Shown: piece after piece, positions 1 through 6,388 of the stretch
How the letters are laid out: each line of letters opens with the position of its first letter
How positions within the stretch are numbered: position 1 is the stretch's first letter
Source: Chloroflexota bacterium
GTDB lineage: Bacteria; Chloroflexota; Dehalococcoidia; Lucifugimonadales; UBA3495
Reading direction: 5' to 3'
DNA: 64,000 bases
Assembly: GCA_027623675.1 (NCBI GenBank)
Contig: JAQBVF010000003.1
Span: 32,001 to 96,000, forward strand
Position numbers and translations under genes: made by a program
Notes under the pieces: generated by a model
Told to the model about the DNA's origin: nothing
Databases searched by the model: none
The model's input: only the letters and a program-made list of their open reading frames with translations

Positions 1-497
1 CGCGTGCAGGCCGGTCAAACGGGGACCAGCAATACCGTATCGACGTTGTCCTGTTTGAGCAGGGTGGCGATCCGGCGCGCCGACGGCTCCATGCGCCTTG
101 GGTCTGCCGCGCCCATGAAGGAGTAATGGAAGTCTGCCATGCTGCCGACGACGCCCGCCTGAGCGAGTTCGCGGAGCCGGTCCAACGGGAACGCCACATT
201 CCAGTCCTGCTGGAACCCGGTGCGGTCGAAGTTGGTTGAGATGTGGCTCATGACCAGATCTTCGGCGGCGATGTCGCCGGGTATCACTCGGTAGTCGGCG
301 GGCCACTCCTGGGAGGTGGCGGACTGGATGGTGAAGGGGCTATCGTCCCGCCGGTGCAGGCCCGCCGTGGTGATGATGGCCACGCGGCGTTCACTGAGGG
401 GCGGCCCCGAAACCCAAGGCTGGGTCTCGAATACTGGGCAGTCCATCCGGCGGAGAGAGGCCGCCTCGGCCTCGTCCAAAGCTTCAAGTCGGACCAT
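1..497 (-). CDS. Glycine/sarcosine/betaine/D-proline reductase selenoprotein B (GrdB/PrdB)-like protein; in-frame TGA (Sec) at 15-17; runs off the left edge
   Basis: ATG at 497 with GGAGGG upstream. Motifs VAIITTAG, D-x-N-V-x-FPLDRL and HYSFMG. The frame reads LVPV-TGA-PACTR, giving UxxC. Confidence 0.8.
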
Positions 498-796
498 GTA
501 AAACCCTCCCGAGACTCCGCCGAATGGTGATGGTTTGGGCGCTTGCTGCCAACCCATGTGGCCAGATATGACTGCACCCCAACCCGGTATGCTGTCTCGC
601 AGTATATATGAACCGGGCGAGGCACTCCAAACCCCATCCGGGCATGTTCCAGTGTGGGCACTGCTACGGTCGCAACTCGGGTCTCGAAGCACTAGCCAAA
701 ACGCCCGATGTATCACATGCGAGGTTGTTTATCAGTCCAAAAATAGCTACCATCTGCTCGCAAGAGGCGAGCAAGTAACCGAAAGGATGAATCCAC

Positions 797-1558
797 ATGC
801 CTGAGATAGAAGTTCTTTTACCTGGTTTCAGCGTCAACACTGATCAGGGAACCCTGGGTCTTTGCACCGTGACACTGGTGCGCGGAGAAAAACTGACAGT
901 GGTGGATGTAGGACACTTTGGGCGGCGGACCATGTTGGTTGAGACTCTGCGGAGCCATGGCATCTCGCCGGAAGACATCGGAAGGGTGATTCTGACCCAT
1001 GCCCATTGGGACCATTCCCAGAACACCGACCTATTCCCGAACGCCGAGATCGTGATCTCCAAACAGGAATTGGAGTACAGCCGGAACCCCAGGGCCAATG
1101 ATTACGCGACGGCTAAATACTTCGCCGATACATTGTCGCCCCACACCGTGATCGAAGTCTCCGGAGAAACCGAACTGGAGAAAGGGGTGGGGACGTTCGA
1201 TACACCCGGTCATACCGCCGGACACCAAAGTGTTCTCGTAGAGACTTCGAGCGGCCTGGTCTGCCTTGGCGGTGATGCGATATCAGACGCGGGCGCCCTG
1301 GGCCGCGGCCTGCCTGCCTTCGTTTTTTGGAGCGTCGAGCAAGCCCAAGCGAGCCTAAGAAAGATCTCCCAAGCCGCGGACGTGATTTACCCGGGTCACG
1401 ACCGGCCCTTCCGGATCGACGGCGACAAGGTCGAATACCTGACGGAAGCTCCAACCATCAAGATCAGCGGGTTCCTGGACAGCAGCCGAGACCTGGTTTC
1501 GGTGGAGCTAGGATTGCCGCCGAGGTTCCAGCCCAGGATCAACCCGGACGCCGTTTAG
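797..1558 (+). CDS. MBL-fold metallo-hydrolase
   Basis: THAHWDH (HxHxDH), TPGHTAGH, GDA and YPGH motifs. Confidence 0.9.
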   Translation: MPEIEVLLPGFSVNTDQGTLGLCTVTLVRGEKLTVVDVGHFGRRTMLVETLRSHGISPEDIGRVILTHAHWDHSQNTDLFPNAEIVISKQELEYSRNPRANDYATAKYFADTLSPHTVIEVSGETELEKGVGTFDTPGHTAGHQSVLVETSSGLVCLGGDAISDAGALGRGLPAFVFWSVEQAQASLRKISQAADVIYPGHDRPFRIDGDKVEYLTEAPTIKISGFLDSSRDLVSVELGLPPRFQPRINPDAV

Positions 1559-1711
1559 GTCGTACCGAATGCGCCTGACGAGACCCCATGCAGGCCTCTA
1601 CTGTAACGATGCTGGGCCGCTGATTGCGGCTTGAACATCTGTTTGACCGGCGGGGCGGATCGCTCAGCCAGCCACATGCCGATGGGCTGCGAGGGTGCGA
1701 GCTTGGAACCG

Positions 1712-2311
1712 TTACCCGCCCAACTCGGCGATCAAACTGGCCACCGTTGGCCGGTCCACCGGCGTCTGGCCGCGGTGTTCGAAGATGACGATCCCATCCT
1801 CATCCAAGATGAAATCCCCGCCAAGTTGCCGCCAGTCGCTGGCCGCATGCTGGTACCTACGCCCTCTGGCGAAATGCTTCACGTAGGTCCAGATTGTCTT
1901 TAGCGAGAAGACCTTTGCCCAGGCGCCTTGTGACAGGCCGTAGGCTAGGTAAACGTCCCTTTCGGGGTCGGACAGAATGGGATAGGGCAACTGGAGCTGC
2001 CGGGTGAGCTGGAAAAGCCGGTCCCTCGGCTCAAAGGAGATGGCCACCACCTCGGCGCCTTTGGATTGAATCTCGCCGTGCCGTTGCCGCAACTGCGACA
2101 GATGCTCTCTTCAGGGCACTCAAGCGAAATGCCTCAGAAATACCAGCAGCGCCTTGCGGCCTCGCAATTCCTGGAGGGATAGATACTTGCCCTCAGGCAT
2201 GGCCAGGGTGAAATCAGGCGCGGCGAGGCCCAGCAACGCCGGTTTGAGGGCATCCGGGTTGCGGCTCATACGCCGCTCATAATTAAGAGCATCTTTTTCA
2301 TGTCGAGGCAC
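1712..2311 (-). CDS. SelL-like / AhpC-TSA thioredoxin-fold selenoprotein with UxxU (two in-frame TGA, at 2120-2122 and 2111-2113); start may be ATG 2269
   Basis: ORFs 2120-2311 and 1712-2092 share one frame and read APDFTL...LVFLRHFA-TGA-VP-TGA-REHLSQLRQ...LSDPER...QLGGDFILD. Confidence 0.85.
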
Positions 2312-2472
2312 CCCTGGTTAGCTTCTTCCGTATGGGCGACATCACGGGGGCGCCCGGTGGGCATGCCCACCAGGGAGACCCCTGGGCATCTAAGGAAATT
2401 GCGGTCTCCACCCACGATGCTATACTCGTCTTCGATGCCCAAACTGCAACTTCTGATTCTACACATTGCACC

Positions 2473-3312
2473 GTGTTAATAGACTCTCACTGCCATATCC
2501 TCCCACCGTCTTTCGTTGACCGGCGGGCCGAGATCGCCAGCCGCGACGCCACCTTTGCGGCGCTCCTGGCCACTCCCGGCGCCCGCATCGCCTCGGCGTC
2601 CGGCCTGCTTGCAGCCATGGACCGGGACGGCGTGGACCGCGCGGTGGTCATGGGGATGGGGTGGACCGACCCTGACATCGCCGCCGAGGCCAACGACTAC
2701 ATCATCCAGGCCGTGCAGGAGAATCCCGACCGTCTCTCCGGATTCTGCTCGGTGAACCCAGCTTGGGGCGGACCGTCCGTGGCTGAGGCCGGACGATGTC
2801 TCGCCGCTGGGCTTGTTGGCATCGGCGAACTCCACGCCGACACCCAGGGGTTTGACATCACCGACGCCGAGGTTATGGCCCCGCTGATGGACTTCGCCGG
2901 TTCCTACTCTCTGCCTGTATTGGTGCACGCCTCGGAGCCGGCCGGCCACCAATACCCGGGCAAGGGCGCGACCACGCCGGACAGGATATACCGGTTCATC
3001 CAGAATTTTCCGGACAACGTCATCATCTGCGCTCACTGGGGCGGCGGTCTGCCTTTCTACTCGCTGATGCCAGAGGTCCCGGAGGTCCTGAAGAACGTCT
3101 ACTTCGATTCCGCGGCATCGCCGTTCCTATACCGTCCCGAGGTTTTCGCCACGGTGGCCCGGTTGGCCGGGGCGGGAAAGGTGCTTTTCGCCAGCGATTT
3201 CCCATTGATGGAGATATCCAGGCCGCTGGAGCAGGCCCGAAACGCCGGGCTTACGCCTGAAACCGAAGCGGCCCTGCTTTCGGGCAACGCGGCCAGGCTC
3301 CTGGGCTTATGA
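2473..3312 (+). CDS. Amidohydrolase family 2 protein
   Basis: IDSHCH, GIGELH, LVH, AHWGGG and FASDFP motifs. GTG start at 2473 inferred. Confidence 0.85.
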   Translation: MLIDSHCHILPPSFVDRRAEIASRDATFAALLATPGARIASASGLLAAMDRDGVDRAVVMGMGWTDPDIAAEANDYIIQAVQENPDRLSGFCSVNPAWGGPSVAEAGRCLAAGLVGIGELHADTQGFDITDAEVMAPLMDFAGSYSLPVLVHASEPAGHQYPGKGATTPDRIYRFIQNFPDNVIICAHWGGGLPFYSLMPEVPEVLKNVYFDSAASPFLYRPEVFATVARLAGAGKVLFASDFPLMEISRPLEQARNAGLTPETEAALLSGNAARLLGL

Positions 3313-3860
3313 CGTCGAGCAACCGGCTTCCCGACGGGACCATCACCCTGCCGGACCACCTGCGGGAAGGCCTGGACCTGCTGTTCGTGGGCTTGAATCC
3401 CTCCCAATACTCGGCCGAGGTTGGCCATTACTTCGCCAACCCCCGAAACCGGTTCTGGGCGGCGTTCAACCTGTCGGGATTGGTGGACCGGAAATTGGAC
3501 GCGGCGAACGACGCGACTCTGCTGGCCGACGGCATCGGCTTCACCGACGTTGCCAAGCGCCCGACAGCCATGGGCTCGGGACTGCGGGCGGCCGATTTTC
3601 GCCGGTGGGCGCCCGTTCTTAGGGAAAAGATATTGAAGTTCGCCCCAAAGTTGGTCTGCTTCCACGGCATGATGGCCTACAAAGCCTATCTTCAGCATGG
3701 GGAGGGCGCTAAAGAGGACCCCCAACTTGGCCTGCAAGAGCGCTCCATCGGCGTATCCAAAGTCTTCGTAGTGCCCAATCCCTCCCCGGCCAACGCCAAG
3801 TACTCGTTGGACGACCTTGCGGCGTGGTACGGGCGGCTCAGGGAGGCCAGCAGACAGTGA
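3309..3860 (+). CDS. mug: Mismatch-specific uracil/thymine DNA glycosylase (Mug/TDG family)
   Basis: FVGLNP, GHYFANPRNRFW and VPNPSPAN motifs. ATGA overlap with the upstream gene. Confidence 0.9.
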   Translation: MTSSNRLPDGTITLPDHLREGLDLLFVGLNPSQYSAEVGHYFANPRNRFWAAFNLSGLVDRKLDAANDATLLADGIGFTDVAKRPTAMGSGLRAADFRRWAPVLREKILKFAPKLVCFHGMMAYKAYLQHGEGAKEDPQLGLQERSIGVSKVFVVPNPSPANAKYSLDDLAAWYGRLREASRQ

Positions 3861-4453
3861 CGACGCCATCTGGAAAAGTCCGCTCGTTCATCGCCATCCC
3901 GGCGCCCGGCGAATGGACTCTGGCCCTGGAAGAGACGGTTAAAAGACTGGATGCGAAGATCGGCAAAGACGTGCGCTGGGTGCGGCCCGAGGGCATCCAT
4001 CTGACCCTCAAGTTCATGGGCGATATCCAAGCCGAGACGGTGGAGCGGGTCCTGGCGGTCCTGCCGGAGGTCACCGCCCGGTTCTCGCCGTTCACGTTGT
4101 TCACCGCCGGGATGGGCGTGTTCCCCAACCCTCGGCGTCCCCGCGTGCTCTGGGCGGGGGTGGGCGGCGATCTGGAGACTCTTTCAGTCCTTCAAGCGGC
4201 AGTTGATGAAGCGGTGGGGCGGCTTGGGTTGCCGAAAGAGCAGCGGGCATTCTCCCCCCACCTAACCCTGGGCCGGGTCCGGCGGGACGTTCCCGACGGA
4301 CGGCTGGCCGATATCGGGCGGCTCGTGGCTGGCGGAGAACTCCCCGGTCTGCCGCCCTGGACCGCCGACACCGTCAACCTGATGCGCACCGAACTCGACC
4401 CGGCCGGCTCCCGCCATTACCTGGTGGGGTCGGCATTGATCGGCGGCGGGTGA
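3857..4453 (+). CDS. thpR: RNA 2',3'-cyclic phosphodiesterase (2H family)
   Basis: RSFIAI, HLTLKF, PRVLW and PHLTLGR (two HxT motifs). GTGA overlap. Confidence 0.9.
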   Translation: MTTPSGKVRSFIAIPAPGEWTLALEETVKRLDAKIGKDVRWVRPEGIHLTLKFMGDIQAETVERVLAVLPEVTARFSPFTLFTAGMGVFPNPRRPRVLWAGVGGDLETLSVLQAAVDEAVGRLGLPKEQRAFSPHLTLGRVRRDVPDGRLADIGRLVAGGELPGLPPWTADTVNLMRTELDPAGSRHYLVGSALIGGG

Positions 4454-5376
4454 TGGCGATGGACCGTTTGACCGCCACCATCAAGCCCGTTCCGCCCTTC
4501 AACTTCGAGCTGACGGCGGGCTACCACACCTACTTCCAGAGCCGCTACGGCACCGATACCATGGAAGACGGCGTCTACCGCAGGCTGCTGGACCTGGGCG
4601 ACAAACTGGTCCTGGCCTCCGTGCGCTCTACGGGAACCACCGATGCGCCGGAGCTTTCCCTGGAATTGCAGGGGCAGACATTGGGTCCCGCAGACGTGGA
4701 ATCGGCCAAGGGCCGGGTGTCATGGCTCCTGGGGGTTGACCAGGACCTGGCCCCGTTCTACCAGTTGGGCCGGGCGGACCGGGCGATGAGCGGTCTGGTT
4801 GACGAGTTCTACGGCCTGCATCTACCCCATACAGCCTCAGTGTTTGAGGCGTTGGTCCTGGCGGTGTTGGGGCAGCAGATATCCACCAGCGTGGCCCGGA
4901 TCATCCGCACGCTGCTCATCGAGACTTTCGGACCCAATGCCGAGTTCGATGGCGAGACCTACTACGCCTTCCCCCGGCCCGCGTCCATCTACGCATCGTC
5001 GCCGGCCGAGCTCCATACCATGAAGCTGACCCAGCGGAAGTCGGAGTATGTTCACGGTCTGGCCGGCGCTGCGCTGGATGCCGATGTGGGATTGGAGGAC
5101 CTGGGCGGGTTGTCGGATGCCCAGATTGTCGACAAGCTGGTTGCCCTTCGCGGCGTGGGTATCTGGACCGCCCAATGGGTGCTGATCCGCGCGGCCGGCC
5201 GTCCCGATGCCCTGCCTCTGGGCGACCTGGCCCTGCGGCGGGTGGTGTCCCGTCTGTTTACCGGCGGCGCTGACGTGAACGACGCTCAGGTGGAGGACAT
5301 CGCCCAGCGCTGGTCACCCTACCGCACCTATGCCACCGTCTACCTGTTCAGCGCTCTGAGAACCGGCGCCGGGTAA
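4450..5376 (+). CDS. alkA: DNA-3-methyladenine glycosylase II (AlkA family, HhH-GPD)
   Basis: LGQQIS, LRGVGIWTA, PLGDLALRR and WSPYR motifs. Confidence 0.85.
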   Translation: MMAMDRLTATIKPVPPFNFELTAGYHTYFQSRYGTDTMEDGVYRRLLDLGDKLVLASVRSTGTTDAPELSLELQGQTLGPADVESAKGRVSWLLGVDQDLAPFYQLGRADRAMSGLVDEFYGLHLPHTASVFEALVLAVLGQQISTSVARIIRTLLIETFGPNAEFDGETYYAFPRPASIYASSPAELHTMKLTQRKSEYVHGLAGAALDADVGLEDLGGLSDAQIVDKLVALRGVGIWTAQWVLIRAAGRPDALPLGDLALRRVVSRLFTGGADVNDAQVEDIAQRWSPYRTYATVYLFSALRTGAG

Positions 5377-5395
5377 CCAGATTTAGGAGTGCCGC

Positions 5396-6388
5396 ATGCC
5401 ATTTCTAGGACTGAGGTTGGGGAACGAGCCGGAGTTGAGCGCGGCTGATAACCAGTCGCTGGCGGCGCTGGCCGAGGAGCTGGGTTACGGCGAAGTTTGG
5501 ATGACTGAAGGCTCCGGCCGAGATTCCCTGACCCAACTCACCGCCATGGCAACCGCCACCAAGCAGATCGGACTGGCCACAGGCATACTGCCCATGTTCT
5601 CCCGGACTCCGTTGATCACGGCCATGTCGGCGGCCGGACTGGCGGCGGTATCGGGAGACCGGTTCATCCTGGGACTGGGCGTGGGCAATCCGCCGGCGGT
5701 TGAGGAAGGACACGGGGTCCCCTACAAGCAGCCCCTGGAACACCTTCGAGACATGGTGCGGATAATCCGTGGCCTGCTGCAGGGCGAGGAAGTCACCCAT
5801 GATGGCAAAGCGATCAAAGTGATGGGAGCATCCCTGGGGGTGGCCGCGCCCAAGAGCAAACTTCCCATCTATGTCGCCGCCCTGCGGCCCCGTATGCTGC
5901 AACTGGCCGGCGAGGTGGCCGATGGCGTGCTGCTAAGTTGGACCGCTGCCAGCTATCTGGAGCAGGCTATCGGCATCGTCAGGGACGCCGCGGCCAAGGC
6001 TGGACGCGACCCCGATGACGTCGCAATCTCGGGGTACGTGCGCATCGCGGTGACCGACGACCTGGCGGCGGGACAGGCCAGCCTGCAGCGTCAGATCGCG
6101 GGGTACGCCAGCGGCGCCCATTACCGGGCTTTCTTCGAGAACTCGGGGTTCAGCCAAGAGATGGGCGGCGTGATACCGGCCAAGCGGCATGAGGCTGACC
6201 CAACCAGCGCGGCGGCGATCAGCCAACGGATGCAGCATGAATTGGGCGTGGTCGGGACTGCCGAGGCCTGCAATGCACGTTTGGACGAGCTGCGTCAGAT
6301 GGGGTTGACCAAACCCGTGATCGCTCCCGTGCCCGTGGGAGACCTCAAAACTTCCTACGAACGGACCGTTCGCGCTCTGGCTCCCTAG
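5396..6388 (+). CDS. LLM-class flavin/F420-dependent oxidoreductase
   Basis: AEELGY..W..E, RFILGLGVG, PIYVAAL and LAGEVADG motifs. Confidence 0.85.
   Translation: MPFLGLRLGNEPELSAADNQSLAALAEELGYGEVWMTEGSGRDSLTQLTAMATATKQIGLATGILPMFSRTPLITAMSAAGLAAVSGDRFILGLGVGNPPAVEEGHGVPYKQPLEHLRDMVRIIRGLLQGEEVTHDGKAIKVMGASLGVAAPKSKLPIYVAALRPRMLQLAGEVADGVLLSWTAASYLEQAIGIVRDAAAKAGRDPDDVAISGYVRIAVTDDLAAGQASLQRQIAGYASGAHYRAFFENSGFSQEMGGVIPAKRHEADPTSAAAISQRMQHELGVVGTAEACNARLDELRQMGLTKPVIAPVPVGDLKTSYERTVRALAP

Follow-up and report, generated by a model that had tools for sequence, protein, structure and literature searches.

The minus strand of the window, the 64,000-nt stretch of Chloroflexota DNA analysed here, carries at 2311..1712 one open frame when TGA is read as selenocysteine (Sec, U), and this frame contains FLRHFA-U-VP-U-REHL. 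The read-through coding sequence (1712..2269, minus strand) runs from ATG 2269 to a TAA at 1714-1712 and would encode a 185-aa SelL-related, peroxiredoxin (Prx)-like redox protein with the motif U50-V-P-U53. The first in-frame TGA (2120..2122, minus strand; Sec50, the first redox-motif position) aligns with the first Cys of the ResA CxxC motif, and the second (2111..2113, minus strand; Sec53) falls in a column that is Cys in most database homologues; together, the motif columns read C-x-x-C in 63 of 75 of them. A sequence-only reading, which named no strand, had described two TGAs three codons apart at the CxxC position of a thioredoxin fold, in a SelL-like gene split by the gene caller; the coordinates were confirmed and the split was reproduced, the mechanical caller breaking the gene into a 63-aa ORF (2120-2311) and a 126-aa ORF (1712-2092). 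Public collections contain the 126-aa half, as one 100% identical entry and dozens of relatives of 124-132 aa, some named 'redoxin domain-containing protein' of SAR202 or Dehalococcoidia. Named relatives of the window protein are Chloroflexota, Dehalococcoidia and SAR202-cluster metagenome-assembled genomes.

The mechanical ORF call adds 14 codons from GTG 2311 (2270..2311, minus strand). An ATG at the 2269 position is kept in all 13 same-genus copies, and in 9 of these an in-frame stop no more than 8 codons upstream closes the extra segment, which disfavours GTG 2311 and points to ATG 2269 as the probable start, with codons 2270..2311 probably untranslated. A weak sigma-70-like site (2279..2306, minus strand; 1 found against 0.3 expected in shuffles) lies directly 5' of this ATG and ends 10 nt from it, which would leave a very short leader; most same-genus copies have a similar sequence at its second hexamer region, 5' of the ATG. 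As the flanking genes lie on the plus strand, this gene is probably monocistronic. The plus-strand reading of 1712-2311 was rejected, as it contains stops and no gene, and an Rfam search of window positions 1-6000 returned no match at E values up to 1.

Divergent from the gene, plus-strand genes at 2332-5376 encode an amidohydrolase, a Mug-type uracil glycosylase, a 2',3'-cyclic phosphodiesterase and an AlkA-type glycosylase. The amidohydrolase and Mug-type genes are syntenic with the UxxU gene in most relatives (the amidohydrolase in 31 of 36 loci), which looks like ordinary gene order beside DNA-repair genes. A GrdB/PrdB-like gene lies 1.2 kb downstream at 15-497 (minus strand) and continues past the window start (L098, G000:C5:31235-32728). 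Its ORF in the window ends at a TGA (17-15) in the context V-U-P-A-C, which is spanned by TIGR04483, has a G-loop hairpin at +19 and is probably another Sec codon. Neither the MBL gene nor the PrdB-like gene downstream occurred in any of the 36 loci compared; a functional link to the neighbours was not adopted, and no pathway was drawn from context.

The read-through protein matches the NCBIfam model NF040769 ('SelL-related redox protein') with 160.6 bits against a cut-off of 120, over model positions 3-172 of 173, and scores far below the cut-offs of the ResA, Bcp and PrxQ models. Pfam matches are AhpC-TSA (PF00578, 79.7 bits), AhpC-TSA_2 and Redoxin; an AhpC-TSA domain with UGA at the CxxC columns places the protein in the bacterial Prx-like UxxC/UxxU class. 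An alignment-based AlphaFold model, built with Cys in place of Sec, reached pLDDT 92.8 and pTM 0.88 (a single-sequence run with pLDDT 35 was discarded) and positions the motif at the start of the helix following the first core strand. The best Protein Data Bank matches, 3hjp, 4nmu and 1su9, are Bcp/ResA folds with TM scores of 0.63-0.73 by query and ~20% identity. The classical peroxiredoxin active site is P-x-x-x-T/S-x-x-C (PMC4989117); the context here is F-L-R-H-F-A-U-V-P-U, in which the first U occupies the Prx Thr column. Because the T/S-x-x-C signature is absent, we infer that a role as a selenol/diselenide exchange catalyst is more likely than one as a classical peroxidase. Read by eye, the sequence has no hydrophobic N-terminal stretch, which suggests that the protein is probably cytoplasmic.

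Conservation of the two TGA codons

A strong match to the protein was found in 19 of 60 related genomes: 13 of 19 from the same genus, 5 of 17 from other genera of the family and 1 of 24 from other families. Among 18 full-length close copies, including the window's own and one decayed copy, 17 encode UxxU and the remaining one UxxC (TGA plus TGC); outside this set are one copy cut off by its contig and one distant copy with UxxG. Across 21 close homologues, the first motif codon is TGA in every case and the second is TGA (18), TGC (2) or GGG (1). The first downstream stop varies among TAG (10), TGA (6) and TAA (5), one of these being a premature stop in a decayed copy. Neither TAA nor TAG stands at either motif position, whereas all three stops occur downstream, and the TGAs are thus conserved beyond chance. 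Coding on both sides of the TGAs, as proposed from the sequence, was borne out by pN/pS ratios of 0.19 upstream and 0.22 downstream. None of the counter-observations named in the sequence-only reading was encountered: orthologues have Sec or Cys at the motif columns, with a single Gly exception, the TGAs are conserved in relatives, and tRNA-Sec, SelA, SelB and SelD are all encoded in the genome. One orthologue (L028/L057, G006:C34:158581-159150) keeps both TGAs and has a TAA inside the 3' arm of the hairpin described below, as well as more stops; it is a decayed copy or comes from a low-quality assembly.

The downstream hairpin and its spacing

A conserved SECIS-type hairpin lies at 2084..2101 (minus strand), with a 6-bp stem (2100-2095 with 2090-2085) and an AGUU loop (2094-2091) whose G, at 2093, is +27 from UGA1 and +18 from UGA2. 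RNAalifold applied to 36 Sec-type Chloroflexota genes (18 UxxU, 17 UxxC and 1 UxxG; excluded were 12 CxxC genes, the decayed copy, a copy containing N and a near-duplicate) returned a single element, the AGUU-loop hairpin at 2101-2084 with a stem of 7 bp. In these genes, 93.3% of cells were paired, covariation was 0.598 and two-sided changes occurred in six of seven pairs; the hairpin exceeded all 500 shuffles on four of five measures and stood far above slid controls. The 18 UxxU genes alone gave this hairpin again, and RNAalifold detected no other conserved one within 90 nt in them. The only synonymously invariant codons in 16 UxxU orthologues are the hairpin's S, Q and L codons (0 of 42 elsewhere). 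The basal pair is C.A in the window gene and C-G in 16 of 18 UxxU genes. From the window sequence alone, the hairpin is not significant (z of -1.62 for a 22-mer and -0.62 to +0.43 for four longer segments), and its support is comparative rather than drawn from the window genome by itself.

The published bacterial SECIS model has a loop of 3-9 nt, a stem of 4-16 bp, G in the first two loop positions, a spacing of 16-37 nt and a folding energy at or below -7.5 kcal/mol (PMC13188914). The window hairpin has a 4-nt AGUU loop, a stem of 6-7 bp and UGA-to-loop spacings of 25 and 16 nt, both within the modelled range; its energy is -8.1 kcal/mol with flanks and -7.3 kcal/mol as a bare stem, against the limit of -7.5, and that of the consensus is -10.6 to -10.8 kcal/mol. 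The sequence-only reading had drawn a different hairpin at 2079-2100. The letters are present and begin 10 nt after the second TGA, as it said, but the drawn base pairing (GUUG with CAAC, UGUC with GGCA) is not the conserved one: its values, 71.5% of cells paired and a covariation of 0.234, did not exceed those of a control shifted by 3 columns (73.6%, 0.247), and it is absent from the RNAalifold consensus. The AGUU hairpin holds the same position in UxxC and UxxG homologues, where only UGA1 can be served, and an AGUU loop occurs in just 2 of 12 distinct CxxC homologues. In a divergent UxxG orthologue (L039, G049:C2:1359836-1360354), the hairpin is kept through compensatory changes.

A metagenome scan with a protein-motif pattern, blind to the hairpin, returned at least 119 loci, at least 103 of them distinct. 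Of the distinct matches listed, 64 are long homologues and 28 are short and exon-like, with a splice-donor-like signal in 21 of these; the other 11 are chance hits. Among the matches listed, long homologues with a short, closed N-terminal frame (bacterial-type UxxU) carry the AGUU hairpin in 33 of 34 cases, all 33 with five of five core pairs at the same place and with six different stem sequences across the class, and the 34th is a 5-nt-loop variant. The hairpin is absent from 24 of 25 homologues with a long N-terminal frame (animal-type), again among the matches listed, where 5 truncated long homologues were left without a type. These homologues, which come from the DNA pattern scan, are probably animal-type SelL; no entry bears the SelL name. 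One of them, L253, has named relatives only in corals, a sea star, molluscs and lancelets, and three, including L253, pass NF040769. The link of the window protein to SelL, made in the sequence-only reading, was upheld by its own NF040769 score and by 35% identity to L253 over 153 aa (E = 9e-31).

Other read-through genes of the genome and its lineage provide natural controls for spacing. Of 29 candidates tested, 26 have an HMM match across the TGA; L114, L121 and L123 lack one and were dropped, and the screen is to be read as at least 26 genes. A G-loop hairpin was predicted from single sequences in 24 of these 26 (L109 and L119 have none, and the L101 spacing is that of a second-ranked hairpin chosen by analogy with paralogues), with the loop G between +18 and +28, most commonly at +18 (6 of 24) and at +27 or +28 in two. 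Two single-UGA redoxin families place the loop G at +18 in every distinct member (25 of 25 and 23 of 23); these hairpins mostly have a 5-nt AGUU(A/G) loop, compared with the 4-nt loop of the window hairpin. All 25 relatives of a TlpA-NHL gene have the loop G at +27 and a 5-bp stem that does not vary. Judged from these predicted elements, each of the two spacings occurs on its own in single-UGA genes of this lineage. The +27 spacing permits but does not cause UxxU, because all 25 TlpA-NHL genes are UxxC, and UxxU occurs in none of the 48 genes with a +18 element, as the geometry would predict. The proposal that one hairpin may act at two spacings for two UGAs is thus supported by comparative data.

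The selenoproteome is large for a SAR202-type genome. At least 26 further genes (L095-L122) have an HMM match across an in-frame TGA; they include six UGSC-family genes, three PrdB-like genes and several redoxins, as well as genes for SelD and for deiodinase-like, SelW-like, rhodanese, OsmC-like, DUF3179 and periplasmic binding proteins. Of the dropped candidates, L121 (G000:C21:2782-3750, plus strand) is a 322-codon frame with one TGA (R-A-U-E-E-G), coding-like sequence on both sides and a G-loop hairpin at +17. It had no Pfam or NCBIfam match at the thresholds used and is a possible unlisted selenoprotein.

Proposed decoding of the two UGAs

Both UGAs are probably decoded as Sec by SelB and tRNA-Sec through the one AGUU hairpin, which would give a SelL-related oxidoreductase with the redox box Sec-Val-Pro-Sec; we infer both the Sec incorporation at the two sites and the reuse of the hairpin. 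With UGA1 in the A site, the hairpin would stand 18 nt ahead with its loop G at +27, wholly outside the ribosome. Three translocations would then bring UGA2 into the A site, with the hairpin abutting the mRNA entrance and the loop G at +18. At this point, at most the lowest one or two pairs would melt if the 11-nt E. coli spacer applies (PMC8659212), and the remaining upper 5 bp and loop could deliver the second Sec-tRNA. Against this scheme, the folding energy of the window hairpin is marginal and its z-score not significant, the basal pair is broken in the window gene, and the loop has 4 nt where most +18 single-UGA hairpins have 5. UGA2 also lies at the lower edge of the spacing model, and the E. 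coli loop G lies 2 nt farther than the UGA2 spacing here (PMC8659212).

The decoding machinery is present: SelA, SelB, SelD and tRNA-Sec (70.4 bits) all score over their cut-offs in the genome, which accordingly holds the selA, selB, selC and selD set of a bacterial selenoprotein producer, and its selD has an in-frame TGA of its own. Among other UxxU genomes, SelA was detected in 16 of 18 and tRNA-Sec in 14 of 18. This co-occurrence does not discriminate UxxU from CxxC, because 11 of the 12 genomes that carry CxxC versions have SelA as well.

An unlikely alternative is that a tRNA of the tRNA-ReC/SelC* type reads one UGA or both as Cys, or that misreading occurs, giving UxxC, CxxU or a mixture. 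Genomes with UXXU hydrogenases are enriched in tRNA-ReC (PMC13582414), and in a genome that is 91% complete an extra decoding tRNA could be missing. ARAGORN, at default and 95% thresholds, found one tRNA-Sec and one ordinary tRNA-Cys in this 91% complete genome and thus no second UGA-reading tRNA; three relaxed UCA candidates had no tRNA match in Rfam, and a second SelB-type tRNA with a UCA or GCA anticodon, which defines tRNA-ReC/SelC*, was not found. A single tRNA-Sec match is also the rule in UxxU genomes that have one (12 of 14). Three related genomes (G012, G032 and G049) have two tRNA-Sec matches each, which would suit Cys decoding; in G049, the second match has a reduced length and score (54 bits) and may represent a tRNA-ReC-like gene. 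The genome also encodes a second cysteinyl-tRNA synthetase (CysRS)-like protein (G000:C2:134145-136427, plus strand), which is over the cut-off. It is full length and has ~280 extra C-terminal residues that by eye look like a glycosyltransferase-like domain, unlike CysRS*, a shortened form of CysRS. ARAGORN also called an unusual 84-nt tRNA-Asp(ATC) (G000:C9:38750-38833) and a short tRNA-Ser(GCT) (C2:18964-19040), both probably degenerate tRNAs.

It is quite unlikely that two overlapping hairpins share the task, with the AGUU hairpin serving UGA1 and a refolded one 3' of it, namely the pairing drawn in the sequence-only reading or a variant, serving UGA2. The inner 4-bp stem of that pairing can form in full in 19 of 21 UxxU genes, including the separate L080/L081 lineage, compared with 1 of 18 UxxC/UxxG genes, and the drawn structure exceeds shuffles on cells paired (0 of 500). 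However, the pair probability of the alternative stem is at most 0.09 in all 51 sequences, the stem is no better than its slid control, and the UxxU genes analysed alone return the AGUU hairpin only. Several UxxU metagenome genes among the matches listed differ at the alternative stem yet keep the AGUU hairpin, and kin share codons.

Reading of both UGAs as Sec through the AGUU hairpin also fares better than a split gene, in which UGA2 (or UGA1) would mostly act as a true stop or a selenium-dependent checkpoint and the products would be a short N-terminal peptide and a separately initiated 126-aa piece. E. coli recodes each UGA as Sec with an efficiency of 30-40% (PMC4513850), and with two UGAs little full-length protein could result; a TTG at 2092 opens the downstream ORF. 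But this TTG belongs to the hairpin loop, purifying selection acts on the codons that separate it from UGA2 (pN/pS 0.29), UGA alternates with UGC and never with UAA or UAG, and the modelled fold appears to need both parts. A designed split is thus very unlikely and not supported, and a low full-length yield is compatible with decoding of both UGAs through one hairpin. A pseudogene or assembly error is hardly tenable: the L028 orthologue is decayed, with internal TAA/TAG, but contigs from a second run of the same study carry identical letters at the TGAs, orthologues with the same TGAs span five genera of the family, and both sides of the motif are under purifying selection.

Known relatives and descent

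Bacterial UxxU proteins of this family are already in print. A 'Prx-like thiol:disulfide oxidoreductase' (PF00578, UxxC/UxxU, one or two Sec) is included among bacterial selenoproteins (PMC13188914, PMC9312934), UxxU 'Prx-like 2' sequences were described from GOS ocean metagenomes (PMC2398784), and SelL, with its diselenide, was described from fish, invertebrates and marine bacteria (PMC2397514). A single SECIS serving both UGAs was raised in 2026 as a possibility for UXXU Group 4 [NiFeSe] hydrogenases (PMC13582414). The rarity and mechanistic novelty suggested in the sequence-only reading were therefore overstated. With the bacterial Prx-like/NF040769 selenoproteins, the window protein shares the fold, the UxxU motif, an aquatic bacterial host and caller-split genes, and nothing categorical sets it apart; for the protein itself, the result is an annotation repair within a named family of an already known bacterial UxxU kind. 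A literature search by title and start of abstract, with most subscription journals outside it, found no paper on the SECIS of bacterial SelL-type UxxU genes, none naming the NF040769 HMM and none with both 'SAR202' and 'selenoprotein'. In the literature searched, the host lineage and SECIS anatomy appear undescribed.

Animal SelL has UxxU in a thioredoxin fold and a single SECIS for both UGAs (PMC3316567, PMC4989117), features shared with the window gene, for which the single SECIS is a comparative result. The coral/echinoderm/mollusc-type homologues have the same local motif and 26-35% identity over most of the domain. They differ in having a ~110-aa N-terminal extension and introns and in lacking the in-frame hairpin, whereas the window protein has 185 aa with 49 codons before U50. 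The animal SECIS lies in the 3' UTR (PMC4989117, PMC3316567), where spacing imposes no constraint, unlike in the window gene. A diselenide has been shown for animal SelL and would be a prediction for the window protein. When longer relatives bearing the SelL name were sought with the window protein, none of 345 candidates scored.

The UXXU [NiFeSe] hydrogenases share with the window gene two UGAs three codons apart, one downstream SECIS proposed for both and G in the first two loop positions (PMC13582414). They are unrelated proteins and often accompanied by tRNA-ReC, whereas none was found in the 91% complete window genome, and in the window lineage, unlike in these hydrogenases, each spacing is separately matched by single-UGA genes. 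The E. coli fdhF SECIS is likewise an in-frame hairpin just 3' of its UGA with G-U in the apical loop; the window hairpin lacks the bulged U and lower stem and stands at +18/+27 rather than +20, with two UGAs to serve. Bcp/PrxQ and ResA/TlpA share the fold at ~20% identity, and the window protein differs from them in lacking P-x-x-x-T/S-x-x-C and in having an extra helical insertion (~residues 117-150). In the archaeal UxxU PrxL described from Lokiarchaea (PrxL.1), which is also Prx-like, both redox-box Cys are replaced by Sec; compared by its description, it is archaeal and has a eukaryote-like SECIS outside the bacterial geometry (PMC4989117).

What the locus adds is good comparative evidence that both UGAs are read as Sec through one small hairpin. 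It offers a test case, a small and probably monocistronic gene whose one hairpin is sharply defined and for which nature supplies UxxC, UxxG and CxxC variants as well as single-UGA controls at both spacings. If true, the reading would extend the range over which one SECIS is accepted to work, guide the production of recombinant double-Sec proteins and provide a bacterial model for a kind of diselenide chemistry that only animal SelL has so far represented.

With the motif columns masked, grouping of the 19 Chloroflexota UxxU rows as one clade was rejected (p-AU = 1.35e-5). In a quick unrooted tree of 90 rows, 26 animal-type rows fell on one branch (SH-aLRT 93). This branch is nested in a supported group that also contains bacterial UxxU, UxxC and CxxC rows bearing the hairpin, and the window protein belongs neither to the branch nor to the larger group. 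Every bacterial-type UxxU SelL gene examined has its loop at +27/+18, and none of the 48 genes with the loop at +18 is UxxU. A joint reading, which we hold only tentatively and regard as somewhat doubtful, is that a single hairpin of 16-18 nt can load SelB two times in the space of three elongation cycles. This would set a geometric rule, with UxxU arising only where the loop G is ~+27 from UGA1 and so still at the minimum working +18 from UGA2. The arrangement would be spread over several bacterial branches of the family, one of which holds the animal SelL clade; animal SelL may then descend from such a double-Sec gene of bacteria, and a diselenide-based redox relay may operate in SAR202-type bacteria that have 27 or more selenoprotein genes. 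In the alignment of database homologues, three entries read W-x-x-W at the motif columns; these may be hidden UxxU genes whose UGA pairs the gene caller of the source rendered as Trp.
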